64,000 nt of DNA from Calditrichia bacterium (GCA_020634975.1 JACKAQ010000001.1:3383272-3447271), one strand, 5' to 3'; positions 37,839-56,995 are shown, numbered from the stretch's first letter. Notes: a model not told the origin generated them from the letters alone. Numbers and translations are program-made.

Positions 37839-38840
37839 TTAACTGTCTATGCCATGTTTTTTTAGCTTATACCGAAATTTTTCTCTGGTGATGTGGAGTA
37901 ATTTTGCTGCTTTTGCTTTGTTGCCTTCGGCTGTTTCCAGTGCTTTTTCGAGCACTGCTTTTTCCAATTCGTCCAGGGGAATGCCCTGTGGCGGAAAGTT
38001 GATCTCGATTTTTTGGCTACCGCGAATATTGACCGGATAATTTTTAACGATGTGCCCCTCACCCAGTTTTAAATCATCATAAGAAATAAGCTCAGATGAA
38101 CTGAGTAACACAACGCGCTCAATAGTGTTTTTCAATTCGCGAACATTGCCCGGCCATGGGTAACTGAGCAGCAAATCTTTTGCTGCGTTTGAAAATCCGC
38201 GAATTTTCCGGTGATGCTCTGCCGCAAACTGGAATAAATAATATTCTGCCAGCAACAAAATATCCTGACTGCGTTCCCGCAAAGGCGGCACCCGGATGGA
38301 AATCACGTTTAACCGATAATACAAGTCCTCCCGAAATTTGCCTTTCTGAACCAAATTTACCAGATCGCGGTTGGTTGCGGCAATTATCCGCATTTTGAGG
38401 TCAATATTGCGGATGCCGCCCACCCGCCGGAAGGCTTTTTCATCCAACACTTTGAGCAATTTCGATTGCAACCCGATATTCATATCCCCAATTTCATCGA
38501 GAAAAAACGTTCCGCCGTCTGCCAGTTCCAGCAACCCTTTTTTAGTTTTTCGTGCATCAGTAAATGCGCCGGCTTCGTAGCCGAACAATTCTGTTTCCAG
38601 CAGCGATTCCGGCAGCGCCGTGCAGTTAATTTCCACAAAAGGCTTTGTAGCCTGCTGGCTGGCATTGTGGATTGCCCTGGCGATCAGCTCCTTGCCGGTT
38701 CCGCTTTCACCCAAGATCAGCACGGTAACGGTGGAGCTGTGCACAACTCTTTTGATGTCCTCATACAACTTTTTCATTTGGGGACTTTTGCCAATGAGGT
38801 TGTAAAAATTGATGATCTGATCGCCGGGGGAAATGCTCAT
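37839..38840 (-). CDS. sigma-54-dependent transcriptional activator lacking an N-terminal sensor/receiver domain (AAA+ plus Fis-type HTH only)
   Basis: Walker A is 'ILGESGTGKELIARAIH'. The sigma-54 contact motif is in its 'GAFTDA' variant. The C-terminal HTH is 'AKAAKLLHITREKFRYKLKKHGI'. Only about 20 residues precede the AAA+ core. Confidence 0.85.
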   Translation of the reverse strand: MSISPGDQIINFYNLIGKSPQMKKLYEDIKRVVHSSTVTVLILGESGTGKELIARAIHNASQQATKPFVEINCTALPESLLETELFGYEAGAFTDARKTKKGLLELADGGTFFLDEIGDMNIGLQSKLLKVLDEKAFRRVGGIRNIDLKMRIIAATNRDLVNLVQKGKFREDLYYRLNVISIRVPPLRERSQDILLLAEYYLFQFAAEHHRKIRGFSNAAKDLLLSYPWPGNVRELKNTIERVVLLSSSELISYDDLKLGEGHIVKNYPVNIRGSQKIEINFPPQGIPLDELEKAVLEKALETAEGNKAKAAKLLHITREKFRYKLKKHGIDS

Positions 38841-38974: not shown

Positions 38975-39811
38975 TTATTCGATGAAAATTGCCACGCAAC
39001 CCTCATTTCCGGCTGCTGCCGGCAATGACACAGGTGATACATCTTTTTCGGAAAACAGTGCCCGTAGTCGATCAAAAAAATTTGCTGCCAACGGATGCTG
39101 TGATTGCATCGAAACTCGACCGGATGTCGAATACAAATTACGCAATAGTGCAATTTCCTGGATATATTTTTCGACGTTGCGCGATAAGCTGCTGCCCCGG
39201 CTATCGAACAGCTCGCTGTTGGCAATGCGAATTTGTGTGCCGCTGCTGTCCGCAAAAAACGCTGCAACAATGGTGAAGGTTTGCCCTGGAAATGTTTTTT
39301 TATTTCCGGCGCGATCTACCGCCGTAAAGCTGAATGAATAGTTGTGTCCCGGAACCAGCATCTCGCCGCTGTTGCCAATGCCATCCCACGGTATATCAGC
39401 AGGTGGATTGCCATCGCCGCTAACGGTATAAAATACATCGCCGTTGCTCCGGAAAATGTGCATTTCCCAATACTTCAGATCGCTGAAATTGGCATGAAAC
39501 ACCTTTACCGGCTGCGGTTGGATGTTCGCGAAAGCGGGCGAAATCAGTTTGAAAGTGAACGAATCCCATTTATTTTCACCGACCGATTGCCCGGACACAC
39601 CCACCGCCGCCCAGGAAATTTTTTCGGGAATCTGGATGAGATCTGAAAAATCCATTGGCATCATAACCGGCAATTTTTCTTCTTTCATTTCTGCGGAATA
39701 AGTGGCTTTTACCACAACTTCGTCTAGCGAACCGGATTTTTCTTCAGAATTCTGTCCGAACACGCCCGATGTTGCGAACAAGATGACGGAAACAATCATT
39801 AATAATTTCAT
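38975..39811 (-). CDS. hypothetical secreted protein (Ig-like middle domain; possible degenerate OmpA/Pal-like C-terminal segment)
   Basis: It has a signal peptide. The 'WDGIGNSGEMLVPGHNYSFSFTAVDRAGN' block resembles FlgD/Ig-like folds. It is the last gene of the Exb/TonB block. The function is unknown. Confidence 0.4.
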   Translation of the reverse strand: MKLLMIVSVILFATSGVFGQNSEEKSGSLDEVVVKATYSAEMKEEKLPVMMPMDFSDLIQIPEKISWAAVGVSGQSVGENKWDSFTFKLISPAFANIQPQPVKVFHANFSDLKYWEMHIFRSNGDVFYTVSGDGNPPADIPWDGIGNSGEMLVPGHNYSFSFTAVDRAGNKKTFPGQTFTIVAAFFADSSGTQIRIANSELFDSRGSSLSRNVEKYIQEIALLRNLYSTSGRVSMQSQHPLAANFFDRLRALFSEKDVSPVSLPAAAGNEGCVAIFIE

Positions 39812-39833: not shown

Positions 39834-40832
39834 TCAAATGACGAATTGGAACGTTATTACACCGGATTGATCGAGGCGAATGCCGCTGTTTTCGAGCGCG
39901 GCAAATTGCCACTGTTTTAGCGCTTCGATCACCAGACGATCCCACTCACCCGATCCGCTGGTGCGAACCACCACCACATTTTCCCGCACGACACCATTTT
40001 CCATCACCGTAAAGCGGAGCGCGACAGTTGCGCTAACGCCCTGACGTTTTGCCCATTCCGGGAACGGCGGGATAATTTTACGGATGATTTTCCGGTTGGC
40101 CAGCGCACCCGTGATAACCGTGCCCGGCTGATCCGGTTTCAACGCATCGGGATTCAAATCTTTTTGTTTCGGCTTACTATCGATTTTAATGCTTCCGCTG
40201 TTTGTGGCGTTCGATTTTCCGGTGCCCGCGCCAAGTTGAATTTGCGGAGTTTTGGGCCCGTCAACCGCGATGCCCGCTGTTACCGGAGCAGTTGAGGCGA
40301 GCAAGTTCTGGCTGTCTCCCAGACTGATCGGCGTGGGACGGGCAATTTTTTCGTCATCGCGGATGCCTTTTGCCGGGGAAATCTTGATCAGATCCGCCGG
40401 TTTTACGATGTTGTTTGCCACCGCTTGCACTTTTTCGATATTGATTGGCGCCTGCTTCCGCTTCCGGTCAAGAAAAATTTTATCCGAACCGGCAGCCGCA
40501 ATAGATGCGCCGGTTTCCGGCTGCGGCAGCTCGTTGGTTTCCGGCAAAACGGCTGCAGCCTGCACGATTTTCTTTACCGGTTTCGGTTGGATTTCCGGGG
40601 TTTCTGCCGGCAATTCTTCGGTCATATCGATAAATGTGATTTCCCGGATCGGCGGCGTTTCAGCCACGTTCATATCTGCCAAACCGAAATACAGCGCGAA
40701 CATGATGATGTGAATCGTCACAGAAAAACCCATCGCACCGGCAGAGCGGAAGGTGTCATTCCGAAAAAAAATCGCGGAAAACCGGGTCACCAACTGTCTG
40801 TAAATGATGGTTTTAAGGTTGTTGTTTTTCAT
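39834..40832 (-). CDS. energy transducer TonB family protein
   Basis: It has an N-terminal TM anchor and a proline/charged linker. The C-terminal TonB domain reads 'IPPFPEWAKRQGVSATVALRFTVMENGVV...VITFQFVI'. The start is chosen at the ATG preceded by GAGGGGGAA. Confidence 0.8.
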   Translation of the reverse strand: MKNNNLKTIIYRQLVTRFSAIFFRNDTFRSAGAMGFSVTIHIIMFALYFGLADMNVAETPPIREITFIDMTEELPAETPEIQPKPVKKIVQAAAVLPETNELPQPETGASIAAAGSDKIFLDRKRKQAPINIEKVQAVANNIVKPADLIKISPAKGIRDDEKIARPTPISLGDSQNLLASTAPVTAGIAVDGPKTPQIQLGAGTGKSNATNSGSIKIDSKPKQKDLNPDALKPDQPGTVITGALANRKIIRKIIPPFPEWAKRQGVSATVALRFTVMENGVVRENVVVVRTSGSGEWDRLVIEALKQWQFAALENSGIRLDQSGVITFQFVI

Positions 40833-40842
40833 AAATTCCCCC

Positions 40843-41247
40843 TCAAACCTGATCCCGGTTGCGTTGCAGCGTTGCGATGGCAATCCGGGTTGCGCCGGCT
40901 TTTTTTGCGGTGCCGAGCAATTCCAGCACGATGTTATGGGTCACATTTTTGTCTGCACGGATGACCACCAACCGGTCCGGATGTTCCGCCACTCGCTTTT
41001 TCAGTTGAGCGGCGAGCGCCGGAAACGAGGCAATGGCGTCTTCGTTCAACGCCAGTTTTCCGTCATTCGAATACGAAATTGTGATGTTCGATTCGGATTT
41101 TGCTTCCACGGTTTTGGCGCGCGGAAGGTTGATTTCCATATCGACAGGCGTCATCATCAACGGCGATGTGACCATAAAAACGATCACCAAAATGAGGGCT
41201 ACGCCCACCAACGGGGTTATATCTACTTTGCTGATTGGCTCTTCCAT
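40843..41247 (-). CDS. biopolymer transport protein ExbD/TolR
   Basis: It has the single-TM ExbD architecture 'ITPLVGVALILVIVFMV'. The C-terminal blocks are 'LVVIRADKNVTHNIVLELLGTAKKAG'. The start is chosen at the ATG preceded by GGGAG. Confidence 0.8.
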   Translation of the reverse strand: MEEPISKVDITPLVGVALILVIVFMVTSPLMMTPVDMEINLPRAKTVEAKSESNITISYSNDGKLALNEDAIASFPALAAQLKKRVAEHPDRLVVIRADKNVTHNIVLELLGTAKKAGATRIAIATLQRNRDQV

Positions 41248-41714: not shown

Positions 41715-42335
41715 TCACGCGTTGTCCGGGATTCCCAATATGATCAACACTTTTTTGCTGACCGATTCGATTTCCAGCATGGTTGTGTTCACTTTTCGCA
41801 AAAAATAATTGTAAAACACCACCGCGGGAACGGCGACAACCAGCCCGCCGGCAGTGGTAATCAGCGCCTCGGCGATGCCTGCAGAAATCACCGACGGTCC
41901 GGCGGAACCGGAAACGGACAGCGAGTGGAACGCCTGGATGATCCCGACCACCGTGCCGAACAGCCCGATCAGCGGCGCAATGTTGCCCAGCGTTCCCAAA
42001 ATATTTAGGTTTTTTTCCAGCTTGGTGCGTTGTTCCAATGCGATGGCGTCCATCATATCCACGGCTGCGCCGGGATTTTTATTTGCCTCTTCCAGCCCGC
42101 TTTTGACCACCCGCGCCAGCGGTGAAAACGAGTTGCTGCAAATGTTTATTGCTGCTTCAACGTCATTTTGTTTGAGCGCATTTTTGATGCTCGTAAAAAA
42201 TGAATCCGCATTCACCGTTGTGTGTTTAAAAAACAGCCAACGCTCCAAAATAAAGGTAACGGCAACCACCGAACAGCCCAATAAAATGAGCATCGTGATA
42301 CTGGATTTTATGGTTTCAACAACGTTCAAGTCCAT
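41715..42335 (-). CDS. MotA/TolQ/ExbB proton-channel family protein
   Basis: The three-TM topology is present. The conserved 'LGTLGNIAPLIGLFGTVVGII' and 'ALITTAGGLVVAVPAVVFYNYF' blocks are present. Confidence 0.85.
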   Translation of the reverse strand: MDLNVVETIKSSITMLILLGCSVVAVTFILERWLFFKHTTVNADSFFTSIKNALKQNDVEAAINICSNSFSPLARVVKSGLEEANKNPGAAVDMMDAIALEQRTKLEKNLNILGTLGNIAPLIGLFGTVVGIIQAFHSLSVSGSAGPSVISAGIAEALITTAGGLVVAVPAVVFYNYFLRKVNTTMLEIESVSKKVLIILGIPDNA

Positions 42336-42437: not shown

Positions 42438-45400
42438 TCATTTCGCCGCTTTCAGATCTGTCAGCGCTTGAATGCGTTCTTCTGCCGCAACTACCCAGCG
42501 TTCTTCCGATGTGCTGTTCACCAGCAATTGATACGCCGATACCGCTTTCGAGTCTTTCCCGATATTTTCATAAATTGCGGCGAGCTGGGCGAGCGAACTG
42601 AGCCGGTAATAGTCTGCGGATTCGCCAACGCCGATCGATTGACTGAAAATGGATTCGGCTTCATCTACCTGATTTTGTTGAAGATACAACATCCCCAAAT
42701 GATAAATGGCTTCGCTGGCAATTGCTCCGTCGGGTGTCCGGATCAATGTGGTGTAAAGCTCAATTGCATCGGGATGCTGGTTTAATTGCATATGCTCATT
42801 CGCCATTTGCAACCGGATTTTCGGTGCATCCTCTGCCGAAGGATATGCCGTCAAATACTGCCGGAAATATTCCAGCGCCTGCGCATGATCGTTCAGCCGT
42901 CCGGCGGTCCAACCGGCATTTTGCAACGCGTGCGCCGCAAATCCGGATTCCGGGAAACCCGCAATCACCGCATCAAAACAATCGATGGCAGACAGGTAGC
43001 TTTCCATATTAAAATAGCAAACACCCAACAGAAAATTTGCTTCCGGCAACTGGTTGCTCGCCGGAAAATATTGGATAAACTGGCTGAACTCCCGTGCGGC
43101 ATCCGGATATTTTTCCTGTGCCATAAACGCTTTCGCCAGCGAAAACTGGGCATCCGGCGCGTAAGACGAACTCGGAAACGCAGTCAAAATTTCCTTGAAT
43201 TCCGTTGCTGCGGCTTCGTACGAACCTTCGGCGAGATAATTGGTTGCCATCCGGTAACGCGCATCGACCGCCAGCTCCGCATTGGCGGATTGCTCCGCAA
43301 CTTTTCGGAATGTTTCCGCCGCCTGATCGGTTTGCCCAAGCTGGTAATAGCTGTACTGGATGCCTTCCAACGCCACAGTGTTTTTTTCGTGATCGGGAAA
43401 TTTATCTAAAAATTGCTGATAGCGTTTGATCGCTAAATCATAATTTTCTGCGTTATACGCCGACTGGGCGAGTCGCAAATGGCTTTCCACTGCAACCGGG
43501 CTTCCGGGATATTTCCGGATAATTTTGGTCAGCACAGAATCCGCATCTTCAAAATAATTAGCCCGAAAATAGAGATCCGCCGCCTGAAACAGCGCATCCG
43601 GTGCTAATGGCGATTGCGGGAAATCGATGGCCATCCGTTCCCACGTATCGATGGCTTCGGCATATTGCTGCAATCGGTAATAGCATTCAGCAACGTGAAA
43701 TGCGGATCGCGAAATCAGCGCGGCATTTTCCGGCAGACGCTGGTCATCCGGCTGCACCGGATATTCCTGCAACGCCGCCGCATATTTTTCCTGATGAAAC
43801 AGCGCCGTGGCATAACCGTATCGCGCCGCGGATTTGTTCGGGTTGCTCAGCGTGTTTTTCAATTCGCGAAACTCGTCGATTGCGGCATCGACACCCTGTT
43901 CGTAAAACGCAATCCACGTCAATCCCAATTGCGCTTTTTCGGACAAATCGTCCGGTTGCTCGCTGAGCACGCGGTTGTAATTTTCTTTGGCGAGATCGTA
44001 ATGTTTCAGAAAATAGGCGGATTCTGCCATCAGCAAATAATTTGCCCGTTCCCAAAAGCTCAATTCCGCATCACCCGCGTCGCTTTTCAGATAGCTGTTT
44101 CGGTTGATAACCTGTTGATATTGTTGTCTTTGAAAATCCTCATTCTGCAGGGCAAAAAATGCGGCTTCGGGAATGCTACCCGTGCCGCGCGACTGGATAA
44201 TTCTGTCAAAATATTTGTTGGCATTCGATGCCTCTTCGTTCATCGCCAGCATAAAATTGACTGCCGGAACGATTTCGTTTTTCGGATACATCGATAAAAA
44301 TTGCCGCATGCTGATGACCGCACTAAGGCTGTCGCCTTTTTCCAACTCGGTCATTGCTGCTTTTATTTTGGCGAGCGGCGCGATGGGCGAATTGGCGTTC
44401 AGCGATGCAATGGTGTGAAATCGCCGAATCGCATCCTGATATTTTGCGGGATCGATTTTGCCCATCATCCGGAAACACTCCGCCTGCATGTATTGAAAAC
44501 AGGCGCTGTTGGCAGATTCTGATTCGCGGCTAAATTCAGATAATGCATCGTCTGTCTGATTCAAATTGAGATACACCCAACCCAGCCGGAAAGTAACCGC
44601 ATCACGAAAACGGCTGTCCGGAAAATATTGCCGGAAGCGTTTCAGTTCGGATTGTGCCGCCAGCCAGTCCTGCCCGCGCATGAACACATCCGCAGCCTGC
44701 AGCATGGCTTTTGCCGCAGCCGGCGAACCGGGAAACTGGTCGTTGATTTTTTTGTAGATGCTGACCGCCAAAATGCGGTTTTCCACCATTTCGTACGCAT
44801 TGGCGAGGAGGGAAAGGCTGAGCGGGTCGCGTTCGTTTTTCAGTAAATCAATGGCGTGTTGCGGCTCGTTTTCCGCGATGGACAGCCGCGCCTGCAGCGA
44901 GCTCAGCCGTGAATCGCTCGCGGCAGCCGGATTTTCGCTGACAATTTCATCGATCAGCGAACGGCACTGCGTCCAATTTTCCCGGTTGGCAGATTGCCAC
45001 GCCAGCGCCAGCGATGCTTCCAGTTTGATGAACGGGATTGCGCTCCGGTCGTGCAGCGATTGGAACACCTGCACCGCGAGATTCTCTTTCCCGCTTTTCA
45101 GAAAAATGATGCCGCGCCGCAGTTCCGTTTCCTCACGGATCGAATCGGGCAGTTTTCCGTCGCGGTTGCCAATCTGTTCCAGCGCTTTCAACGCGCCGTC
45201 GTATTTTTGGGCGTTGAGCAACGCTTCGGATTGCAAAAAGGATATCCGTGAAAACAGCACGGCATCCCGGGTTTCCTTTTTGGCTTGTTCGCAAAGCGTA
45301 ACAATGGTATTGATATCGCCGCCCTCCGAAAAGCTGTTGGCAGCCGTCTGGAAATGTTGCCAGGCAATATATTCATCGCCGAACGCCAACCCGGTCAACA

Positions 45401-45461
45401 GGGCAACCCAAACGGCGATTGCGATATGAAATTTCCGGTGTTTTGTTCTATTGTTGTTCAT
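42438..45461 (-). CDS. large tetratricopeptide-repeat protein (signal-anchored, about 1007 aa)
   Basis: Dozens of TPR-like 34-residue units occur, for example 'AEAIDTWERMAIDFPQSPLAPDALFQAADLYFRANYFEDA'. The start is chosen at 'MNNNRTKHRKFHIAIAVW' with an upstream GGAGAAAA. Confidence 0.75.
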   Translation of the reverse strand: MNNNRTKHRKFHIAIAVWVALLTGLAFGDEYIAWQHFQTAANSFSEGGDINTIVTLCEQAKKETRDAVLFSRISFLQSEALLNAQKYDGALKALEQIGNRDGKLPDSIREETELRRGIIFLKSGKENLAVQVFQSLHDRSAIPFIKLEASLALAWQSANRENWTQCRSLIDEIVSENPAAASDSRLSSLQARLSIAENEPQHAIDLLKNERDPLSLSLLANAYEMVENRILAVSIYKKINDQFPGSPAAAKAMLQAADVFMRGQDWLAAQSELKRFRQYFPDSRFRDAVTFRLGWVYLNLNQTDDALSEFSRESESANSACFQYMQAECFRMMGKIDPAKYQDAIRRFHTIASLNANSPIAPLAKIKAAMTELEKGDSLSAVISMRQFLSMYPKNEIVPAVNFMLAMNEEASNANKYFDRIIQSRGTGSIPEAAFFALQNEDFQRQQYQQVINRNSYLKSDAGDAELSFWERANYLLMAESAYFLKHYDLAKENYNRVLSEQPDDLSEKAQLGLTWIAFYEQGVDAAIDEFRELKNTLSNPNKSAARYGYATALFHQEKYAAALQEYPVQPDDQRLPENAALISRSAFHVAECYYRLQQYAEAIDTWERMAIDFPQSPLAPDALFQAADLYFRANYFEDADSVLTKIIRKYPGSPVAVESHLRLAQSAYNAENYDLAIKRYQQFLDKFPDHEKNTVALEGIQYSYYQLGQTDQAAETFRKVAEQSANAELAVDARYRMATNYLAEGSYEAAATEFKEILTAFPSSSYAPDAQFSLAKAFMAQEKYPDAAREFSQFIQYFPASNQLPEANFLLGVCYFNMESYLSAIDCFDAVIAGFPESGFAAHALQNAGWTAGRLNDHAQALEYFRQYLTAYPSAEDAPKIRLQMANEHMQLNQHPDAIELYTTLIRTPDGAIASEAIYHLGMLYLQQNQVDEAESIFSQSIGVGESADYYRLSSLAQLAAIYENIGKDSKAVSAYQLLVNSTSEERWVVAAEERIQALTDLKAAK

Positions 45462-46731
45462 TTTTGTTTTCTCCGGGGTTGTTGATTCGTTCGTCAAATC
45501 CCAGTGATCCGGAAGGACCGGCCGTGTTGATGGAAACCAGCGTGCCATCGGAATGGTGCGTTTCCCCCGCAACAGTGCTCACCGCAAACCGGTAGAAAAA
45601 CTTGCCGTCGTGAACGAGTTGTCCGGCATCGTTGCGACCGTCCCAAACGATTTCTTCGGGCAATTCCGTTGCCTGCGCGAAGTTGCGCACGATGTTGCCT
45701 TCGGCATCCACGATCTCAAAATTCCAGCGATTGATGTCGCTGCGGCAATTCACTTTCAACTTGATTTTTGAAACATTCTGCTCGCCTGCCGGGGAGAAAA
45801 CGTTCGGATAGGCGGTTGCGGCAACGCCAAATCCGCCAAATGAATAATTGAGCGCGAACACCTGATTGGTGCCGAGTTCCGATGTGTTTTTGTTGCTGTA
45901 ATCCATCCCGAACTGGTTGAGCGATAATCCCAATCCCATGGTGATCTGGCTGTTGTTGACACCGCCGCGCAACGCAATCATCGGCATTACCTGATATTCC
46001 ACACCGATGTTGAGCGCGGTTTTATCCCATCCCAGAATTTTGGAGATTTCCGTGCTCACCGACATTTTGTCTTCGAACAGTTTGGCGACCGCGCCAACGC
46101 GAAGCTGGCGGGCAAAACTTTGCGATTCTTCCGCCAGCGTCATCGACGGAGCGAGTGCGTTCACCAGCATCAAACCGGTGGTCAGCCACGGCGACAGTTG
46201 CTTCCGCAAACCGATGTCAAACCCGTGACCCATTCCCGAGTAATCGAGCATTTTTTGGGTAACCAGTTTGTAATTGATCCCGATGGCGATATCCTGAAAT
46301 GCTACCGTTGACCACGACGCGAGGAACGCCATATCGCTGAGATTGAAGTTGCCGATTTCCTCGTTCAGCTCGTTGCGCTGATCAAATTCCCCGGAGTTGA
46401 GGGCGATCAGACCGAGCCCGAAATTGCCGTAGCTGCGGGTGGGGGCGGTTGCCGCAACATAATCCAAACTGGTGTTCATAAACAATTTAGAGTGCATAAA
46501 ATAGATCTGGAACGGGTTCTGGTTGGCTAAACCTGCCGGATTCCAGAACAACGCCGAGCCGTCCTGTGCCATTGCGGTGTAGGCATTTCCCAATGCCTGC
46601 CCGCGTGCGCCTATCCCCATGTGGAGATAGGCGCCGGGCATTCCGGCTGCACCTTCCTGCGCAAATAACGCAGGGAAACTGAGCATCGCGATCGCTGCGA
46701 TTAATCCGATGAAACGTCTATTTTTTTTCAT
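45448..46731 (-). CDS. outer-membrane beta-barrel protein of PorP/SprF/PorV-like type with a C-terminal FlgD/Ig-like domain (putative T9SS cargo-partner)
   Basis: It has a signal peptide (start 'MKKNRRFIG...'). The N-terminal motif is 'GSALFWNPAGLA'. A beta-rich core is present. The C-terminal block is 'IVWDGRNDAGQLVHDGKFFYRF'. Its frame region overlaps the stop of the giant T9SS cargo gene by 4 nt. Confidence 0.5.
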   Translation of the reverse strand: MKKNRRFIGLIAAIAMLSFPALFAQEGAAGMPGAYLHMGIGARGQALGNAYTAMAQDGSALFWNPAGLANQNPFQIYFMHSKLFMNTSLDYVAATAPTRSYGNFGLGLIALNSGEFDQRNELNEEIGNFNLSDMAFLASWSTVAFQDIAIGINYKLVTQKMLDYSGMGHGFDIGLRKQLSPWLTTGLMLVNALAPSMTLAEESQSFARQLRVGAVAKLFEDKMSVSTEISKILGWDKTALNIGVEYQVMPMIALRGGVNNSQITMGLGLSLNQFGMDYSNKNTSELGTNQVFALNYSFGGFGVAATAYPNVFSPAGEQNVSKIKLKVNCRSDINRWNFEIVDAEGNIVRNFAQATELPEEIVWDGRNDAGQLVHDGKFFYRFAVSTVAGETHHSDGTLVSINTAGPSGSLGFDERINNPGENKNEQQ

Positions 46732-46784
46732 TTTTTGGCTCCCAAATGGTTGAATAACGGTCATTGCTTCAATTGATTGTGCCA

Positions 46785-49700
46785 TCATCGCAACACCGCG
46801 ATTTTGCGCATGGCGTTCATGACAACCTTGCCGTTGGCGGTGGCTTTGGCAACGAGGATGTAGCCGCCGTTACCCACTTTTTGTCCGCGATCGTTCACAC
46901 CATTCCATATGACAGAGTTGGGATGGCTGCTGTTTTCGCGACCTTTTCCGCCCGGCTCACCGGCGCTGATTTTTTGTGTCCACACCAGATTCCCGAACAG
47001 ATCGAAAATCTGCAGTTTCACATCTGCATCTACCGGCAGGTAGTAATCAATTCGTGTCATATCGGATTCCAGACCAAATGGATTCGGGTAGTTGACAGGT
47101 TGACCGTCGGGCATGTCCGAAGTGGTCAGGTTGACGACGATTTCGAAATCCGTCGCAACGGTGTCCACGAGTGCCCGGACGATGTTGGTTTCGGTCACAC
47201 GACCTGCTGTAAACGTGACGCTGGCGACGCCTTCGCCGTTGGAAACGGCGTTGCCCTGTTTGAGCTGCCCGCTGCCCTGAACCAGTTCAAAGCTGACATC
47301 ATGGTTGATTACCGGGTTTCCGGCCTGATCGAATAATTTTGCCAGCAACACCAGTTCTTCCAGACCGCGCAGCTCGGTTTTCGGTGCGTTGACCGAAATC
47401 GATGCGACGTTTCCGGCAAAAATTTCCAGCGGATCGGAATAGCCCGGATCGGTGCCGATGCCGTCCGCAACTTTAATCCGGATAACGCCCACAAAATCGC
47501 CGCTTTGCTGCACGGTGCGCTGTCCGCCCTGCAGGTTGAATGACGCATTTTCGAATGTGCCGACAACCTCGTCAATATCTTGCGCGTCAACCGCGCTCAG
47601 GTTTACCACATGGTTTGCGCTCGGCACGATTTCGCCGATGCCGTTTTTGAAAAATACGGTCATCGCGAACGATTCGCCGGCCGCAAAGCGAGTTGTATCT
47701 AATGAAATTTCATAATGTAATCCGCCGACGAGCACTTCCAGCAGCGCATCGAGCGAGGTGCGGATACTCGAACGGCTGTCGTTGATTGCCCGGATAATCT
47801 GGTTGCCGCCCTGGTTCAGCGTCACCGAAAATCCGGCTTTGCCGTTCACCAAAACGGAGTCATTTTTGATAATTGTGGCGCTATTGTCGGTGGTGAATAA
47901 GTGCACGTTATCCGCAGGTGCGTTGGTGATGGCGTTCCAATAATCATCCACCGCCCAAACTTCAACCGAAAACGGCAGTCCGGAGGTTTGACGCTGTGCG
48001 CTGTTGGCGCGTCCCGGGGTTTTCAGCGGATCGTTTTCGGTATCGCCGGGCAGCAGCGATTCGCCGGGGAGCAACACCAGCAGTTGCGAAAAAGCGTTCG
48101 GCTCGACAATCAGGCTGTCGGCAATTGCCGCCGGAAATCCGGTTGTGAAAGTGAATTGCGCCTGAATGTTGTGCGTTCCTGCTGCGCGAACGGTCACCGG
48201 AATTTCGGATCGCCCGTTCGCCAATTGAATGTCGGCGGGAATTTGGGCAAATGTATCGCTGACGCTGATGCTCAGCGAATCAGCATTTTCGGCAATGATA
48301 TTCCAGAATGCATCCACCGCGCGAACCGTAATGTTGAATGCGTTTCCGGCGGTTTGGGTGAGTGCGTTGCCTTTTTTGCCGGGGTTGACGCCGGGTGTCA
48401 CCGTTTCGCCGGGGAGCAACACTTGCAATCCCGCGAGTTCAGCAGGAACGACCGTAAACGTGTTGCTGTAGCCGGTGTGGGTGTTCGGCGCGGGCACGTA
48501 ATCCGCGGCGTACAGCACAACCGCGGAATCGGCGCGGGTGACGGCCAGTTCGCCCTGCCAGTTGCCGTTTGCCAGCGTGACGCCGGTTTGGGTAATTGTG
48601 CCGTTTCCGGTTGAGGCGGAGAGGATGATATCGCCGTCATAATCGGTAATCGGATTGTCGTAAATATTCATCGCCTGAATGTGCAGGCTGAAGGACTGAC
48701 CGGCAATTTGCCCGCTGTCGATCACGGAAAATGCGAAGTGATGCACAGCGCCGGACTGCACGGAAAACTGGCTGGAGGTGTCGGCAAACGCCGGATTCGA
48801 CGCACCTGCGACCCGCAATTTCTGGTTGCCCGGTGTCAGCATCGTGAAATCAATGTTGCTGATTCCGGCGGTCAGCATCGTTTCCGATGGCAGCACAGCC
48901 TGCGGATCGGTTGCGCTGAAATTGACTGCGAAGCTGTCCGGCGCGGTCACGTTCCACCATGCGTCGGTTGTGCGTAGCTTGATTTGGAAGGGCACACCGC
49001 TGATCTGCGGTTGCGGATTGCCGGATTTTCCCGGTGCCAAACCGGGTGTTTCCAGTTCGCCCGGCATCAGGAGTTGCAGTTTGCTGAATGCGCCCGGAAC
49101 CACCGTGAACGGGTTGCTGTTTCCGCGAACGATGTCCGCGAAATCGTGCGCGTTCAGATGAACGCTCTGCGCTGCTTTGGTGATCGTCACCGGTCCGCTC
49201 CATGTGCCATCGACAAACTGGACATTGCCAACGATGATCGTTCCCGGTCCCGTCGATGACGTCAGGCTGACCATTTCGTTGTAATTGGTGACGGTTGAGC
49301 CGCTGCCGTTTACCGCGTGAATGGTTACGTTGATGGCATTGCCGGCGCTCTGCGGACTGCTGATCGGTTCGAACAAAAAGCTGGCTACCGAACCGCTCAC
49401 TACGTGAATCAACGGCGATGTATCGGAAGAAATTTGCGGATCGTGGCGATAATGCGCGGTCAGCGTCCAGAATCCCGGCGTGTTCAATCGCGTATTCGCG
49501 AAAGTGATGGTGCCGGATTGCAGTTGCGCATCCAGCGGTAAATTCGCGGATGGATCGGTAGCGGAAAGCCCCACGGTTCCTGTGTCGGTCGTGACCGCGT
49601 TCCACCATTCGTCCACGGCGTTGATCGTTACCGGGATCGCGTCGCCGGCAACCAGTGGGTCAACATCGCCGGTTTTTCCGGGAGCGATCCCCGGTGTTGC

Positions 49701-52700
49701 TGTCTCGCCGGGCAGCAAAATTTGCATCCGGGTAAATTCGCCCGGGGTGATGTTGAATAAATTGCTCTGCCCGCTGTGCGGATTTGCCGCAAAGTCGAGG
49801 CAGGTTAATTGCACGTTGGCTGTTGCTTTTGTGATGGTGATGTTGCCGCTCCAAACGCCGTCCACAAAATCGACTTCGGATGGCGAAATGGTGGCTGCGC
49901 CGCTGCTCGATTCCAGACGGGCGTGCCCGTTGTAACCGGACACCGGATTTCCGGCAACGTCCGTTGCAGTTATCGTTACGCCAAATGCGTTTCCGGCGGT
50001 CTGGTTGGCGATGGTCGCAAATTCAAAATGATCCAGATTGCCGGGGAAAATATTGATGGCGCTGCTGACCGATCCCAAAATCGACGGACTGGAAATATCC
50101 GCCGCAGAAACGGTGTGAATGCCCGCCGTGCCCATGATGAAAGACTGGCTTGCCGCACCGTTGATCAACTTGCCCGTTTCCGAGAAAATGGCGCTCGTAT
50201 CGGTGGAGCTCAGCCTGATGCTGTCGCCGGCAGCGGTGATCAGGTTCCAGTGGTTGTCCACCGCGCGAACGGAAACGTTGAATTCTTCGCCGGTTTGCTG
50301 ATCCAGCGGCGTGCCGGTTTTTCCCGGCGCAACGCCCGGATTGGCCTGTTCGCCGGGCAGCAACACCTGCAATTTGCTGAACGATCCCGGCACGACCGTG
50401 AATGCGTTACTCGTGCCGGTGTGGTTCGGTGTGCCGTTGTCATTCGCGGTCAGCGTAACAGAACCGGCGGCTTTGGTGAGTGTAATTTCGCCGGAAAAAA
50501 CGCCGTTTTGGAACGGCCCGACGGTCACCGGTGTGATCGTTCCCGTGCCGGTCGATGCGCTCAATTCAACTGTTCCGTTGAATCCGAACACCGTTTGGTT
50601 GTCAGCGGTTTGCGCTTCGATGGCCACTGAAAACGGTGTTCCGGCAGTGACCGGACTGCTGATAGTACTAAATTCAAAATGATCCAGATTTTGCGGTAAC
50701 ACCGAAATTTGCGGCGTTTGCCCGTTTTGGATCGTCGGGTTGTTCAAATGAAATGCGGATACCGTATGCGCACCGTCGCTGTTCAGCGTGATGCTCACAT
50801 TTTTCGCGCCGTTGATCAGTCGCGCCGGTTCCGGCAGCGATGCGAACGCATCCGTGGAAGATACGCCGAAAGAATCGCTGGCGGTGGTCACTACGTTCCA
50901 GTATTCATCCACACCGTTCACAACGATGGGGAAGGGGTGACCGGCATTTTGCGATTGCGGCGTGCCGGTGTGTCCCGGTTCAACGCCTGGCGTTGCGGTC
51001 ATGCCCGGAACGAGCACCTGGAATTTGGTGAGCGCACCGGGTTGGACTTCGAACTGGTTGCTGGTGCCGGTGTGCGGCGGTGTTGCGCCGTCTTTTGCGG
51101 TCAGGTAAACGCCGCCGGAGGCAACTTTCAGCGTCACGTTGCCCGTCCACGTGCCGTTGTTGAAATTGGCGGTGATGGGAATCATCGTGTTATCGCCGGT
51201 GCTGGCTGCGAGGAAAACCACCCCGGAATAATCCGTCACGGGATTGCCCTGCGGATCAGCAGCGGTGATGGTAATCGAAAATGGTGTTCCGGCGAATTTC
51301 GGTCCGACAATCGTGGTAAATTCAAAGTGGTCCATATTGCCCGGATTCACCCGGATCTGGCTGCCGGTGCCCTGCGCAACCACCGGATTGGTCACATCCG
51401 ATGCGGAAACCGTTTGCAATCCGTTGGTGTTCAGCGTTACCAAAAATTGTTTGGTGCCGCCGCTCAGCGCTGCGTCGTTCGGGAGCGAAGCTGCAGCGTC
51501 GGAGCTGCTCAAATGTACCAAATCCGCGTTGCTGTTGATGACATTCCACCACTGGTCAACCGCATTTACGCGAATGTAAAAACTGCTGCCGGCCAAAACT
51601 TCGGCTGCCGTGCCGGTTTTTCCCGGCGCGATGCCCGGCGTTGCGGTTTCGCCCGGAACCAGCACCTGCAGTTTTGCCGCTGTTCCGGCGACCACGTTAA
51701 ATTGGTTGCTGTTTCCGGTGTGCGGCGGATTGGCTGCGTCCGTAACCGCCAGATTTACGAGGGTTGCGGCTTTGGTGAGCATCACCGAACCCGACCATGT
51801 GCCGTTAATCATGGTAATTTCGGACGGAAAAACGGTCTGCTCGCCGGTGGTTGAACTGATCGTCAGCACACCCTGAAAATTGGTTGCCGGAACGCCGAGA
51901 TCGTTCACCGCGGTAATCGTAACGTTGAACGGTTGACCGGCAACCTGCGTTGCGCTGATGTTGCTGAACACAAAATGATCGATGCCTTCCACCACCCGCA
52001 CTTCCGACGAAGTGTCCGGCAAAACGGATGCGTTGGACACGTCCCGTGCGGAAACAGTTTGCATTCCGGCGCTGTTCAGCGTCACGTTCATGCTCACGCT
52101 GCCGTTGTTCATCGTAGCGTTGAAGGGCAGATTTGCCGCAGCATCGCTGGATGTCAGTGCAACAACATCGGTATTGGGAATTTTATTCCAGAAATTATCC
52201 GTGCCGTAAACGTTCACCCAGAAATCGTTTCCGGCGGGTTGATCGTTTGGCAAACCGGTTTTCCCGATCCTGCTGCCCGGCGCGAAAGATTCACCCGGCA
52301 AAATCGTCAGCAGTTGGCTGAACGAACCCGGCAATGCGCAAAAACGGTTGCTTTCGCCGTCATGCGGCGTGAACGCCGGCGCCGGCGGCACCGAATTTAC
52401 GGTAACGGTTGTCCGGAAATACGTTTCATCCGCATTTCCCCAGATCCAATGCGCCGGGCTACCTGCAGGAAACCCGGCAACATTGGTTCCCCAGGGCGGG
52501 ATGCCATATGCCCCTAAATCGGTCGACTGGCTCCAGTTTTGATCATTAAAATCAAAACTTTGCCAGCCGTTTTCAAACGTTGATGTTTGCAACCAGGTGT
52601 TGCCGGAAACTTTCACAATCTGGCCGTTCACACGAATTTCAGCGAGCAACCCTTTGCTGGAACTCTGGTTTGTGCCGTGAATGGCCACAACATTTTTGCC

Positions 52701-53582
52701 GTCACGATATGGCAAAATATAGGTTTGCGCGGTTGTCGGCTGTGCGTTTCCACCGATAAAATTGCCGTTCACATACAATTCGTATGCGTCATCCGCGGTG
52801 ATGATGATTTCCATTTTATCCGATGCAGGTGTGCCGTCGCTGGCTTTTAGCCACACATCGCCGGTAACGCCCCATGCCGCTTCTTTTTCTCCCGCCCGAT
52901 ATATTTTTAGATCGCCGATCCATTTTCCCGAGCTGAGTTGAACGGCTTCCGGCTCAATTCTGCCTTCGCCGTAATCGGTTAATTCGGATAAATAAACCCG
53001 GCCGTTGTATTTGTTAACCAGATTCCCGTTTTGGTCGCGGGCGCTAATTTCTACGCTGGGAATCGTTTCACCCACACTCACCTGACCGGGAACGCCGCCG
53101 ACCGGATTGCCAATCGGGGTAATCATGAAATAATCGATTTTCACGATTCGCACCGGCGGAGACGATGCGGAATTGACCGATGGTTTCGAATCGTCGTGTG
53201 CGGTTATGGAATACAATCCGTTGGAATTCAGAATAACGGACAGCGTTGTGCTGCCGTTCACCAGATTCACCGGTAGCGGCAGTTCCGCCAATTGATCGGA
53301 TGATGTCAGCGACACCTGATCGTTGACCGGAACGATATTCCAATTGTTGTCTACTGCGTTCACAATTACGTCAAACGGAACGCCGCTGGTCTGGTCGATC
53401 GGTGAGCCGTTGTATCCGTTGCCCGTGTTTGGGGCTGGCGTCATCCCGGGTAGCAGAATCTGCAGCTTCTTTGCTACCTGGGCTTCCGCCGCAGAGAAAA
53501 ATAAAAACAGCAGCGCGATACAAATGCCAAAAATTCGGCTGTGACTACTGGCGCTGGCTTTACGCCATCCTGGGGATTTCAT
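46785..53582 (-). CDS. giant (2265 aa) secreted cell-surface repeat protein with a C-terminal T9SS sorting domain (adhesin-like)
   Basis: AAGGAGGTG sits 6 nt before the ATG and a signal peptide is present. Two domain types alternate about seven or more times. The A-type is 'LQVLLPGE.A.PG.APGKTG......G..F...V.AVD..WN.V'. The B-type is 'DHFEF..I......AG.PF.V.I.A.D..GN.VT.Y.G.V.L.SSTG'. The C-terminal 'NYPNPF...LQIFDLFGNLVW...VIWNGVNDRGQKVGNGGYILV' is a T9SS CTD. Confidence 0.85.
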   Translation of the reverse strand: MKSPGWRKASASSHSRIFGICIALLFLFFSAAEAQVAKKLQILLPGMTPAPNTGNGYNGSPIDQTSGVPFDVIVNAVDNNWNIVPVNDQVSLTSSDQLAELPLPVNLVNGSTTLSVILNSNGLYSITAHDDSKPSVNSASSPPVRIVKIDYFMITPIGNPVGGVPGQVSVGETIPSVEISARDQNGNLVNKYNGRVYLSELTDYGEGRIEPEAVQLSSGKWIGDLKIYRAGEKEAAWGVTGDVWLKASDGTPASDKMEIIITADDAYELYVNGNFIGGNAQPTTAQTYILPYRDGKNVVAIHGTNQSSSKGLLAEIRVNGQIVKVSGNTWLQTSTFENGWQSFDFNDQNWSQSTDLGAYGIPPWGTNVAGFPAGSPAHWIWGNADETYFRTTVTVNSVPPAPAFTPHDGESNRFCALPGSFSQLLTILPGESFAPGSRIGKTGLPNDQPAGNDFWVNVYGTDNFWNKIPNTDVVALTSSDAAANLPFNATMNNGSVSMNVTLNSAGMQTVSARDVSNASVLPDTSSEVRVVEGIDHFVFSNISATQVAGQPFNVTITAVNDLGVPATNFQGVLTISSTTGEQTVFPSEITMINGTWSGSVMLTKAATLVNLAVTDAANPPHTGNSNQFNVVAGTAAKLQVLVPGETATPGIAPGKTGTAAEVLAGSSFYIRVNAVDQWWNVINSNADLVHLSSSDAAASLPNDAALSGGTKQFLVTLNTNGLQTVSASDVTNPVVAQGTGSQIRVNPGNMDHFEFTTIVGPKFAGTPFSITITAADPQGNPVTDYSGVVFLAASTGDNTMIPITANFNNGTWTGNVTLKVASGGVYLTAKDGATPPHTGTSNQFEVQPGALTKFQVLVPGMTATPGVEPGHTGTPQSQNAGHPFPIVVNGVDEYWNVVTTASDSFGVSSTDAFASLPEPARLINGAKNVSITLNSDGAHTVSAFHLNNPTIQNGQTPQISVLPQNLDHFEFSTISSPVTAGTPFSVAIEAQTADNQTVFGFNGTVELSASTGTGTITPVTVGPFQNGVFSGEITLTKAAGSVTLTANDNGTPNHTGTSNAFTVVPGSFSKLQVLLPGEQANPGVAPGKTGTPLDQQTGEEFNVSVRAVDNHWNLITAAGDSIRLSSTDTSAIFSETGKLINGAASQSFIMGTAGIHTVSAADISSPSILGSVSSAINIFPGNLDHFEFATIANQTAGNAFGVTITATDVAGNPVSGYNGHARLESSSGAATISPSEVDFVDGVWSGNITITKATANVQLTCLDFAANPHSGQSNLFNITPGEFTRMQILLPGETATPGIAPGKTGDVDPLVAGDAIPVTINAVDEWWNAVTTDTGTVGLSATDPSANLPLDAQLQSGTITFANTRLNTPGFWTLTAHYRHDPQISSDTSPLIHVVSGSVASFLFEPISSPQSAGNAINVTIHAVNGSGSTVTNYNEMVSLTSSTGPGTIIVGNVQFVDGTWSGPVTITKAAQSVHLNAHDFADIVRGNSNPFTVVPGAFSKLQLLMPGELETPGLAPGKSGNPQPQISGVPFQIKLRTTDAWWNVTAPDSFAVNFSATDPQAVLPSETMLTAGISNIDFTMLTPGNQKLRVAGASNPAFADTSSQFSVQSGAVHHFAFSVIDSGQIAGQSFSLHIQAMNIYDNPITDYDGDIILSASTGNGTITQTGVTLANGNWQGELAVTRADSAVVLYAADYVPAPNTHTGYSNTFTVVPAELAGLQVLLPGETVTPGVNPGKKGNALTQTAGNAFNITVRAVDAFWNIIAENADSLSISVSDTFAQIPADIQLANGRSEIPVTVRAAGTHNIQAQFTFTTGFPAAIADSLIVEPNAFSQLLVLLPGESLLPGDTENDPLKTPGRANSAQRQTSGLPFSVEVWAVDDYWNAITNAPADNVHLFTTDNSATIIKNDSVLVNGKAGFSVTLNQGGNQIIRAINDSRSSIRTSLDALLEVLVGGLHYEISLDTTRFAAGESFAMTVFFKNGIGEIVPSANHVVNLSAVDAQDIDEVVGTFENASFNLQGGQRTVQQSGDFVGVIRIKVADGIGTDPGYSDPLEIFAGNVASISVNAPKTELRGLEELVLLAKLFDQAGNPVINHDVSFELVQGSGQLKQGNAVSNGEGVASVTFTAGRVTETNIVRALVDTVATDFEIVVNLTTSDMPDGQPVNYPNPFGLESDMTRIDYYLPVDADVKLQIFDLFGNLVWTQKISAGEPGGKGRENSSHPNSVIWNGVNDRGQKVGNGGYILVAKATANGKVVMNAMRKIAVLR
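47700..52400 (-). repeat. intragenic tandem array of alternating ~100-aa A/B domain repeats within the giant surface protein gene
   Basis: The boundaries are approximate. The repeat units are 35-60% identical at the protein level. Block starts such as 'LQVLVPGETATPG.APGKTG' recur at roughly 200-aa intervals. Confidence 0.6.
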
Positions 53583-53628: not shown

Positions 53629-54051
53629 TTAATCGTTTGTATTATCTTTTGGCACAGTTTGCCGGGTGTTTTGTTCGTCCAGATTTTCCATCAGCATATT
53701 AATTTTATCGCCGATTTCGTGCAGGTAATCTGTCGATCGCATTTGAATCCGGTATGTGTAATTGCCTTTAATGGCTTGCTGCAATGCTCGCTTTATCTGG
53801 ATAACAGGACCCGCAACGCGGTGCGAAATGCGGGTACCCAGCCAAAAATTAAAGGCGCTCAGCAAAATGGTGATCAGGAAAATGGTGGAAAACAGCCAGT
53901 AAATCCGCAAATCCAGCGGCAGGTGGGCAGTGGATTTTTCGAAAATATAGAAAACGATGCCGCAAACCATAATCTCTACGGCCGTCAGAAATGTGTAAAG
54001 CATGGTGAAGGCAAACTGTATTCCCGGGCGAATGTAATAGTACCGACGCAT
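53629..54051 (-). CDS. small membrane protein with two TM helices and a HAMP-like domain
   Basis: Two TM segments are followed by 'ISHRVAGPVIQIKRALQQAIKGNYTYRIQMRSTDYLHEIGDKIN'. This is the HAMP amphipathic pattern with the conserved 'G..' and a second helix. The gene lies directly upstream of the giant adhesin gene and is co-oriented with it. Confidence 0.5.
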   Translation of the reverse strand: MRRYYYIRPGIQFAFTMLYTFLTAVEIMVCGIVFYIFEKSTAHLPLDLRIYWLFSTIFLITILLSAFNFWLGTRISHRVAGPVIQIKRALQQAIKGNYTYRIQMRSTDYLHEIGDKINMLMENLDEQNTRQTVPKDNTND

Positions 54052-54267
54052 ATAACCTTTCCTCTGTTTTACACAGGTAAAGGCAACATAAGTGCCAAAA
54101 AGAAAATTGGGAAATTTGTGAATGTCGGGTGAAAGGATAAGTAACAGAATTTAAAGAGTTGAGTTGAAAAATCGTTGAAAATCTGCGAAAAATTGATCTG
54201 CACATAAATTGTTTTTTACCGGTTGATATTTACCGATCGGTAAATATCAACCGGTAGGAATATGGGC

Positions 54268-56233: not shown

Positions 56234-56995
56234 TTACAATGCATCAACCGAAACTTGTTCTTTTGTTTTCGCTTTCAGCGAGGGAATTATTTTGGGAACA
56301 GTTTCTTGATAATTGATATAATCATCTCCAAATGTTTTCACCAGATCACGTTCCTCATAATAAACGCCAACCAGGATATACGCTGTCATTCCGAGTGCGA
56401 ACAGCAGGTGACCTACGGTCATATGCGGCGTAGCCCAAACTGCCAGAAAAATGCCGATCATCATCGGGTGACGCACATTTTTGTAGAATAAGGGTGTTAC
56501 GAAGCGTGGTTTTCCCGCAACTTTTTTCAGTAGTTGGAAAAACACCTGCTGCAATCCGAACAGCTCAAAATGATTGATCAGAAATGTTGAGAGCAGCAAA
56601 ATAAACCATCCGGCAGCAAACACAGCGTAAATTACCTGAGCAGCCATTGCATTGGTTATATTCCAAACAGTAGCCGGAATTGGCTGCCACTGCCACAACA
56701 TAAAGTAGAACAATACACTGGATACCAACACATAAGTGCTGCGTTCCATCGATTCCGGGATGTAGCGGGTAAGCCAGTTTTTAAATTTCCCACGGGCCAT
56801 TAAGGAATGTTGAAGTCCAAACAGAAGCACCAGCGAGATGTTGACCAAAACAGCGAGACCAATCGACGTCGTTTCTCCGGAGTTGATGGTTTTGGGCACG
56901 TAAAAATCGCCCACAAATGCGATGATATACAAAAACCAGCTGAAAAAAATGGAATAACTGATAACACCATATAAAAAAATCATTGCGCGTTTCAT
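56234..56995 (-). CDS. isoprenylcysteine carboxyl methyltransferase (ICMT)/NnrU-like membrane methyltransferase family protein
   Basis: It is polytopic. The C-terminal 'VRHPMMIGIFLAVWATP...GVYYEERDL' matches the ICMT/phospholipid-methyltransferase 'RHPxY...EE' signature. Confidence 0.65.
   Translation of the reverse strand: MKRAMIFLYGVISYSIFFSWFLYIIAFVGDFYVPKTINSGETTSIGLAVLVNISLVLLFGLQHSLMARGKFKNWLTRYIPESMERSTYVLVSSVLFYFMLWQWQPIPATVWNITNAMAAQVIYAVFAAGWFILLLSTFLINHFELFGLQQVFFQLLKKVAGKPRFVTPLFYKNVRHPMMIGIFLAVWATPHMTVGHLLFALGMTAYILVGVYYEERDLVKTFGDDYINYQETVPKIIPSLKAKTKEQVSVDAL

Follow-up and report, generated by a model that had tools for sequence, protein, structure and literature searches.

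We analysed a 64,000-nt stretch of DNA from a Calditrichia bacterium (GCA_020634975.1 JACKAQ010000001.1:3383272-3447271; hereafter the window), which carries on its minus strand a gene for a giant 2265-aa protein followed by a gene for an outer-membrane beta-barrel protein of the PorV/PorQ family. Our best explanation, to which we give about an even chance, is that the two genes lie in the first half of an operon that spans about 15 kb and is conserved in Calditrichota and KSB1, and that this operon encodes a surface adhesin of the T9SS (type IX secretion system) type, docked on a dedicated PorV-like anchor that is tethered by a tetratricopeptide repeat (TPR) protein. The giant protein would be exported by Sec and would bear a type-A-like T9SS C-terminal domain (CTD). 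It would form a long surface fibre of about 19 tandem immunoglobulin (Ig)-like domains, with a putative Ca-lectin-like (CBM67-type) sugar-binding domain near the tip in the lineages that carry this insert. The CTD would dock on the PorV/PorQ-family barrel as its private carrier or anchor, the Ig domain at the end of the barrel protein would, together with the TPR protein of 1007 aa, tether this anchor to the envelope, and an ExbB-ExbD-ExbD-TonB set may give proton-motive energy or envelope coupling. The locus is best filed as a variant of the T9SS theme of cargo plus dedicated anchor, with a different barrel family, and not as a new kind of system.

The PorV/PorQ-family barrel, the sorting-type domain and their adjacency

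The barrel protein matched the NCBIfam PorV/PorQ family model NF033709 over residues 54-317 with 112.8 bits (cutoff 90), and an identical 427-aa protein is named 'PorV/PorQ family protein' at NCBI. Its AlphaFold2 (AF2) model, with a predicted local distance difference test (pLDDT) score of 81.5, shows 14 long strands, preceded by a hatch at the N-terminus and followed by an Ig domain at the C-terminus. Foldseek placed PorV of the Flavobacterium johnsoniae translocon first (8gl6_F, E 1.9e-11; 6h3i_F, E 7e-10), followed by FadL, TbuX and TodX. An earlier interpretation of the window, made without database searches (hereafter the sequence-only reading), had described this protein as PorP/SprF/PorV-like. 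The PorV part of that description holds, whereas the PorP/SprF part was dropped, no such match being found in Pfam or NCBIfam at E<=0.01. A FadL assignment, which the same reading had named as a result that would speak against it, did not arise: the FadL/TodX model PF03349 (Toluene_X) gave 16.3 bits against a cutoff of 29.7, and the PorV/PorQ model passes. The C-terminal Ig/FlgD-like domain was likewise borne out, both by the AF2 model and by FlgD_ig scores of 30.7-34.1 bits. Because the number of barrel strands is even, we infer that this domain faces the periplasm. Support for this placement comes from a single 714-aa protein of candidate division FCPU426 (locus L067, 9998-12142), a PorV-like barrel with a FlgD_ig domain that continues at the same position into OmpA and TPR domains within one polypeptide.

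Both open reading frames (ORFs) called in the sequence-only reading are real (46785..53582, 2265 aa; 45448..46788, 446 aa as the longest ORF; minus strand), but the 4-nt ATGA overlap between them, and the translational coupling read from it, belong to the longest ORF only. All orthologs of the barrel protein (about 48 clusters, 413-435 aa) and the NCBI call begin at MKKNRRF, which gives the 427-aa form. A Shine-Dalgarno-like GGGAG lies 7 nt upstream of this start at 46731, whereas the overlapping ATG has no such motif. From the ortholog starts and the GGGAG motif, the barrel gene probably starts 57 nt past the ATG of the longest ORF, leaving a gap of 53 nt after the giant gene; the corresponding gaps in orthologous loci are about 20 to 180 nt.

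The giant gene is preceded at 7 nt by a strong ribosome-binding site (AAGGAGG). By inspection, the N-terminus of its product consists of a basic n-region, the hydrophobic core IFGICIALLFLFFSA and AEA before Q35, and the protein looks like a secreted surface protein. Orthologs fall into about 20-21 clusters with 52-62% identity, in Calditrichia and KSB1. Depositions that are identical or 99% identical to the giant and barrel proteins come from Calditrichia/Calditrichota metagenome-assembled genomes, and the deposited names of the giant protein are 'hypothetical protein' or 'Ig-like domain-containing protein'. The GC fraction of the gene is 0.57 (positions 48001-52000), compared with a window average of about 0.47-0.48; the high value probably comes from repeats rich in Gly, Ala, Pro and Thr.

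The last 100 residues of the giant protein matched FlgD_ig at threshold (27.4-28.8 bits, cutoff 27), and the type B model CHU_C gave 18.9 bits (cutoff 27). We seeded a CTD profile with the last 100 residues of the orthologs and iterated it over the fetched loci described below, so the profile includes sequences from other loci. It converged on sequences of the type 'PNPFNP...GVYFY...KKMxLxK' and matched the CTDs of PorU (6za2, E 1.6e-8) and PorZ (5m11, E 6e-6) over their full length, as well as the F. johnsoniae cargo CTDs 8glj and 8glk. The K of the terminal ...RKIAVLR occupies the conserved column of a near-invariant Lys close to the C-terminus, and a conserved Lys near the C-terminus has been described for type A CTDs (PMC10994853). 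From these sequence matches, we conclude that the protein probably ends in a divergent type-A-like T9SS domain. The claim that it ends in a T9SS CTD thus stands in so far as the domain is type-A-like and reaches solved T9SS CTDs, but not in the strict sense of the curated models PF18962 (Por_Secre_tail) and TIGR04183. The type A sorting domain has been reported to be restricted to the FCB superphylum and to co-occur with T9SS genes (PMC4737851, PMC11285876). Elsewhere in the window, on the plus strand at 15982-17202, a Ycf48/BNR-type beta-propeller protein carries a canonical PF18962 domain (41.6 bits in Pfam), which the CTD profile finds too; therefore, at least one protein with a textbook type A CTD is encoded in this genome. 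The gene after it (17308-18219) was considered as a second PorV-like partner and rejected, since it encodes a helical membrane protein with no similarity.

The order of CTD protein and barrel is recurrent. We fetched loci by barrel alignment and examined 80 of them, among the matches listed, with labels including Calditrichota, Ignavibacteria, Zixibacteria, Elusimicrobiota and Nitrospirota. A protein was counted as CTD-ending when the domain lay within 5 residues of its C-terminus. The gene immediately upstream on the same strand was CTD-ending for 50 of the 82 PorV-family genes, compared with 95 of 963 for all genes of these loci, and the gaps within the pairs were mostly -17 to 92 nt. Further cargo and barrel pairs, for which the sequence-only reading had suggested a search, are thus widespread here, with a PorV-like barrel. 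Six Calditrichia/Calditrichales loci (L008, L012, L020, L023, L025 and L031) encode a FlgD_ig-ending protein of more than 3300 aa, followed by a PorV-like barrel-TPR fusion of about 640 aa. Modules of this kind continue with a HATPase/HAMP/SpoIIE protein, a STAS protein, DUF4159, DUF4175 and a patatin, and hold no Exb genes. The FCPU426 fusion gene mentioned above is itself preceded by a gene for a 1163-aa CTD protein. Taken together, the adjacency and the barrel-TPR fusions support a triad of cargo, PorV-like barrel and TPR protein, and we infer that the CTD of the giant protein would bind the barrel encoded next to it. A 1234-aa protein recurrently encoded with a barrel in Ignavibacteria was considered as a PorU-PorV pair; we do not claim this, as the 1234-aa protein had no NCBIfam match.

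Architecture of the giant protein

The repeat array was delimited with hidden Markov models (HMMs) trained on three or four internal copies and then run on the giant protein. Nine A units were found (residues 33-146, 416-530, 630-745, 846-961, 1063-1178, 1278-1394, 1494-1608, 1711-1815 and 1826-1950; E 4e-22 to 3e-59). The B units number eight: six strong ones (531-634, 747-850, 963-1067, 1180-1282, 1396-1498 and 1610-1715; E 5e-28 to 2e-57), a split first one (147-256 and 382-420) and a degenerate last one (1955-2058). This agrees with the alternation and the count of at least seven copies each given in the sequence-only reading, and chance cannot account for such an order of A and B. After the array come a Big_1-like domain (residues 2072-2151; Big_1 26.8 bits and Invasin_D3 22.8 bits in Pfam, each under its cutoff) and then the CTD. 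The architecture recurs unchanged in about 20 ortholog clusters; two extra A-B pairs are present in the KSB1 protein, and one short ortholog form has fewer.

The two repeat types are related to each other (hhalign probability 98.3%, E 2.5e-14), A being distinguished by about 30 further residues at its N-terminus, rich in Pro and Gly and with the pattern 'LPGE..PG..GKTG'. For B, the profile search led to the Big_1-type domains that FdeC of E. coli carries (4e9l, E 2e-5); for A, it led to Ig domains of the S-layer protein SbsC (E 9e-4). An AF2 model of one A-B pair, a prediction that had been proposed as a check, gave two tandem Ig-like sandwiches with a pLDDT of 96.2, and its top structural matches were SbsC, intimin D0-D1, LigA and InvD. 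In the Pfam scan, no model matched A or B; nor did any SprB repeat match appear, and the sequence-only reading had recognised no SprB-type repeats. The A type is common: at E<=1e-3 it is present in 12,376 protein clusters, at E<=1e-30 in 2,332, and many members of these clusters are giant proteins with up to 37 copies. On profile and model evidence, A and B are thus to be regarded as homologous Big_1/intimin-like Ig domains rather than exotic ones, and the suggestion that they mark a distinct fibre finds no support. What is particular to this ortholog group is the strict A/B alternation, not the domains themselves. A search of the giant gene for tandem repeats at the DNA level detected none, so the array is old and not a recent expansion.

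The first B domain is split by a clean insertion of about 152 aa in its last loop, as judged by alignment with orthologs that lack it. The insert matched both repeats of a Ca-dependent lectin of Pleurotus ostreatus (6kbj/6t0q, E 2e-20; also 6t1d) and resembles a domain found in GH78 rhamnosidases from Streptomyces. Of about 21 ortholog clusters, it is present only in this lineage and in one other. These matches and the rare occurrence suggest that the insert is a CBM67-like sugar-binding module, added in particular lineages; it differs from the fungal lectin in being a single copy nested in the loop of an Ig domain. Of the 'lectin/PA14-like' insert of about 150 aa placed earlier at residues 245-400, the lectin half is therefore retained, while PA14 was given up in favour of the lectin match.

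The nine-gene cluster and competing explanations

The cluster comprises, in order, genes for a transmembrane protein with a HAMP-like helix, the giant protein, the PorV-like barrel, the 1007-aa TPR protein, ExbB, two ExbD proteins, TonB and a 278-aa Ig protein (Table 1). The link from barrel to TPR, ExbB, ExbD, ExbD and TonB is context beyond the pair of giant and barrel noticed at first. Spacing between the genes is short, from a 14-nt overlap to 102 nt, and no convincing terminator was found inside the cluster. The full order is kept in all nine Calditrichota/KSB1 loci with enough DNA (L001-L004, L084, L086, L088, L094 and L097). Four of these came from look-ups of the giant and barrel proteins (KSB1, Caldithrix sp., a Calditrichaceae bacterium and an ENA metagenome contig), and five from a metagenome scan anchored on the 278-aa protein, which is kept in all orthologous loci; among the matches listed by the barrel-anchored scan of a genome collection, two of the 80 loci were true orthologs. 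We searched the literature on T9SS in Calditrichota/Caldithrix and on PorV/PorV2 partners and found no description of this cluster.

The HAMP match of the first, 140-aa protein is weak (Pfam E 0.053) and its topology was read by inspection; in L002, L003 and L004, too, its gene immediately precedes that of the giant protein. The 1007-aa protein matches many TPR families, including YbgF/CpoB-like (231 bits) and BamD-like repeats. Its start agrees with those of 1007-aa orthologs, and its gene overlaps the end of the barrel gene by 14 nt, an overlap that is not conserved. Identification with PorW/SprE (97.5 bits, cutoff 250) or PorE (22 bits, cutoff 600) was rejected, as these scores reflect generic TPR similarity. 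The MotA_ExbB, ExbD and TonB_C domains, those of a TonB-ExbB-ExbD energy transducer, scored above their cutoffs, one of the two ExbD proteins through its orthologs: the L001 and L002 orthologs of the first ExbD carry PF02472, and phmmer matches were obtained in all orthologous loci. The TonB-family protein scored 46.8 bits with TIGR01352 (cutoff 27.1) and 38.2 bits with PF03544.

Judging from sequence motifs, the cluster would probably be expressed from a sigma-54 promoter with the help of an activator encoded nearby. Within the 64-kb window, the pattern TGGCAC-N5-TTGC matches once, upstream of the first gene, with 0.32 expected by chance. The KSB1 locus (L001) has the exact pattern 129 nt upstream of the giant gene, L003 and L004 have TGGCAC-N5-TTGT upstream, and L002 has none. 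A gene for a sigma-54-dependent activator follows the cluster here, and homologs are adjacent in L001, L083, L087 and L091, making 5 loci in all. Just past the activator gene lies a perfect hairpin with a 12-bp stem (37736-37767), with a T-rich tail on the plus strand only.

Table 1. Positions of the described features, counted from the first letter of the window
Feature	Position	Strand	Basis
Sigma-54-type -24/-12 promoter element TGGCACTTATGTTGC, 32 nt 5' of first gene	54083..54097	minus	motif search
140-aa membrane protein, two hydrophobic segments, weak HAMP-like helix; first cluster gene	53629..54051	minus	inspection, Pfam
Giant 2265-aa surface protein (putative) gene, stop codon included	46785..53582	minus	ORF read
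Predicted Sec signal peptide, giant residues 1-34, cleavage after AEA	53481..53582	minus	sequence inspection
Array of 9 A and 8 B Ig-like domains, order A-b-(A-B)x6-A-A-b', residues 33-2058	47409..53486	minus	HMMs
CBM67-like / mushroom-lectin-like domain, residues about 251-404	52371..52832	minus	PDB match, ortholog alignment
Big_1 / invasin-D3-like Ig domain, residues 2072-2151	47130..47369	minus	Pfam
C-terminal sorting-type domain, residues 2166-2265, ending ...RKIAVLR	46788..47087	minus	FlgD_ig, profile search
PorV/PorQ-family outer-membrane protein, 427 aa from probable start (longest ORF to 46788)	45448..46731	minus	NF033709
N-terminal hatch region and 14-strand barrel, residues 33-298 of the 427-aa form	45838..46635	minus	AF2 model
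C-terminal FlgD/CTD-like Ig domain of barrel protein	45529..45828	minus	FlgD_ig
1007-aa TPR protein, N-terminal signal or anchor	42438..45461	minus	TPR families
ExbB/TolQ-type proton channel subunit	41715..42335	minus	PF01618, 121.6 bits
First ExbD/TolR-type subunit, 137 aa	41264..41677	minus	orthologs
Second ExbD/TolR-type subunit, probable start MEEPISK (by inspection)	40843..41247	minus	PF02472, 91.4 bits
TonB-family protein: N-terminal anchor, long linker, TonB_C	39834..40832	minus	TIGR01352, PF03544
278-aa exported protein, central FlgD-like Ig domain; last conserved cluster gene	38975..39811	minus	weak Big_3_2, FlgD_ig
Sigma-54-dependent activator, AAA+ and helix-turn-helix, no receiver domain	37839..38840	minus	NCBIfam, up to 367 bits

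Several observations weigh against an adhesin docked on a dedicated PorV-like anchor. The barrel failed all three equivalog models (PorV NF033710, 26.7 bits with a cutoff of 250; PorQ NF033711, 77.7 of 220; PorV2 NF052325, 77.8 of 325). On the CTD, PF18962 gave 14.4 bits with a cutoff of 27, TIGR04183 had no match at E<=0.01, and the CTD profile matches FlgD equally well, so that the domain is as close to FlgD as to PorU. The profile used for the adjacency count was trained iteratively on the same loci, with position and adjacency left out of the training. No T9SS core gene was found among the approximately 40 window ORFs scanned, and the Bacteroidetes-type gliding machinery was not found in the genome of Caldithrix abyssi (PMC5317091), which calls for caution about a T9SS in this phylum. 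All full-cluster loci belong to one clade, and the conserved order may partly reflect inheritance. Finally, large distant TPR proteins (about 1000-1200 aa) occur beside ExbB/ExbD, with or without TonB_C, in places that have no giant or PorV-like gene: in Mucilaginibacter (L100) and a soil metagenome-assembled genome (L102) the TPR-Exb block comes with an outer-membrane barrel and a SPOR protein, and in Atribacteria (L101) the TPR gene lies among cell-shape genes. These blocks suggest that TPR-Exb-TonB probably arose earlier, as an envelope module of Tol-like kind. Its partner in Calditrichota may be the adhesin anchor, or the two may merely be inherited side by side.

The most serious competitor, which we nevertheless consider unlikely, is that the cluster joins two unrelated neighbours. 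Barrel, TPR protein, ExbB, both ExbD proteins, TonB and the 278-aa protein would then form a Tol-Pal-like system for envelope integrity or division, with a PorV-fold barrel as its outer-membrane partner by coincidence, and the giant protein would be ordinary cargo of a general secretion route that makes no use of the barrel. The giant-free TPR-Exb blocks just described speak for such an arrangement, and the TPR protein finds its best matches in YbgF/CpoB and BamD, as ExbB and ExbD do in TolQ and TolR. A PorV2-like barrel (228.9 bits, cutoff 325) also stands directly upstream of ExbB, ExbD, ExbD and two TonB_C proteins in L071 (9902-14182), with no CTD protein in front. However, the TolQ and TolR scores are below cutoff (130 of 221 and 82 of 127 bits) and the cluster has no TolB or Pal. 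PorV-family genes are strongly enriched directly downstream of CTD-bearing genes, giant proteins with barrel-TPR fusions recur without Exb genes, the giant gene is missing from none of the nine cluster loci, and the sole recognisable promoter element lies upstream of the giant gene.

A motor-coupled adhesin is improbable in our estimate, as is the wider proposal that the nine genes make up one self-contained envelope-spanning machine that moves force to the giant Ig-repeat adhesin or controls its release. An Exb/Tol stator, a TonB rod, a TPR scaffold and a PorV-like hub would drive the giant protein for gliding-like movement or for force-dependent adhesion and release, comparable to Myxococcus Agl-Glt or Bacteroidota GldLM-SprB. 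Every class of machine part is present in one conserved operon, and the TPR and TonB proteins give very weak matches to GltC and AgmX/PglI models. But these Glt-related matches are far under their cutoffs, the motor module occurs elsewhere without adhesins, paralogous giant/barrel-TPR loci have no motor, and the description of C. abyssi is of a flagellated and not a gliding organism (PMC5317091). If true, Calditrichota and KSB1 would possess a motor-coupled adhesion or gliding device that combines Tol-like with T9SS-like parts, although the phylum is reported to be without the Bacteroidetes gliding genes.

Least probable, and very doubtful, is an uptake system in which a FadL-type channel would be energised via TonB and the lectin-bearing giant protein would capture a polymer or hydrophobic substrate: in the structural search, PorV is followed by FadL, TbuX and TodX, Toluene_X matches weakly, a TonB system is co-encoded and the giant protein carries a predicted sugar-binding insert, but the FadL model stayed far below its cutoff whereas PorV/PorQ passed, no TonB-box-like N-terminus was evident on inspection, the cluster is without transporter or catabolic genes, FadL channels are not known to require TonB, and the insert cannot be the core function because about 19 of 21 ortholog clusters lack it.

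Comparison with known systems and other genes of the window

PorV of F. johnsoniae and Porphyromonas gingivalis (6H3I, 8GL6) resembles the barrel protein in its NF033709 family, in being the best fold match and in having a 14-strand FadL-like barrel with a hatch, and PorV binds the C-terminal domains of cargo (PMC10994853). The protein described here differs in having about 17% identity to solved PorV, in failing the PorV/PorQ/PorV2 equivalog models and in its additional FlgD-like Ig domain. Moreover, it is encoded beside one giant client, whereas PorV serves all cargo. A triad of cargo, barrel and TPR protein has been demonstrated experimentally for PG1035-PorP-PorE and SprB-SprF (PMC9143113), in which a large CTD surface protein likewise has a dedicated barrel and a periplasmic TPR partner. 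The analogy between an adhesin with an SprF-like partner and the present pair, drawn in the sequence-only reading, is functionally apt, but the barrel is of the PorV/PorQ family, not PorP/SprF. The CTD here is also type-A-like (compare its low CHU_C score), SprB repeats are lacking, and the TPR protein has neither the OmpA nor the propeller part of PorE.

The best T9SS-structure matches of the CTD profile come from the PorU-PorV and PorZ-PorQ pairs of the P. gingivalis attachment complex, where the CTDs of PorU and PorZ are retained and stay bound to PorV/PorQ-type barrels (PMC11285876). The giant protein has no sortase or PorZ-like passenger and carries an Ig-repeat passenger, predicted to be a fibre, instead. 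With Tol-Pal and TonB-ExbB-ExbD with CpoB (YbgF), the cluster shares ExbB, two ExbD proteins, a TonB_C protein and a CpoB-like TPR protein in one block. It differs from Tol-Pal in its lack of TolB and Pal, in TolQ/TolR scores under the cutoffs, in a TPR protein about four times the size of CpoB and in the linkage of the block to a giant CTD protein and a PorV-like barrel. Ig-repeat surface proteins such as intimin, invasin and FdeC (Big_1), LigA and SbsC are alike in their domains: B matches FdeC, A matches SbsC and the A-B model superposes on SbsC, intimin D0-D1, LigA and InvD. Export of the giant protein would proceed by its CTD, unlike the autotransporter barrel of the intimin type or the anchoring of S-layer proteins.

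Other genes in the window were noted in passing. Four tandem multihaem cytochromes (572, 649, 540 and 650 aa) are encoded at 18309-26031 on the plus strand. The three that were scanned, all but the 540-aa ORF at 22335-23957, have cytochrome c7/c3 motifs and MtrC/MtrF-like domains II/IV, and the region may serve extracellular electron transfer. Three tandem ORFs of 381-383 aa (8692-12401, minus strand), possibly paralogs, have no Pfam or NCBIfam match and lie beside hybrid histidine kinases. An MddA methanethiol S-methyltransferase (56234-56995, minus strand; 313.5 bits, equivalog cutoff 270) adjoins genes for an OsmC-like protein and an ArsM/UbiE-like methyltransferase.

For type B T9SS cargo, dedicated partners in the outer membrane (SprF/PorP) are well established, and type A cargo is believed to rely on a single common PorV. 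In the present locus, one giant type-A-like client appears to have a PorV-family barrel of its own. The A-type Ig domain, with about 12,000 clusters and no model in the Pfam copy searched, merits definition as a family. The fixed link of the pair to both a TPR protein and an Exb/TonB motor offers a testable candidate for the tethering or energising of such anchors. If the recurrent pairs are real carrier or anchor pairs, private PorV paralogs would be a general means by which very large proteins are brought to the cell surface outside Bacteroidota.

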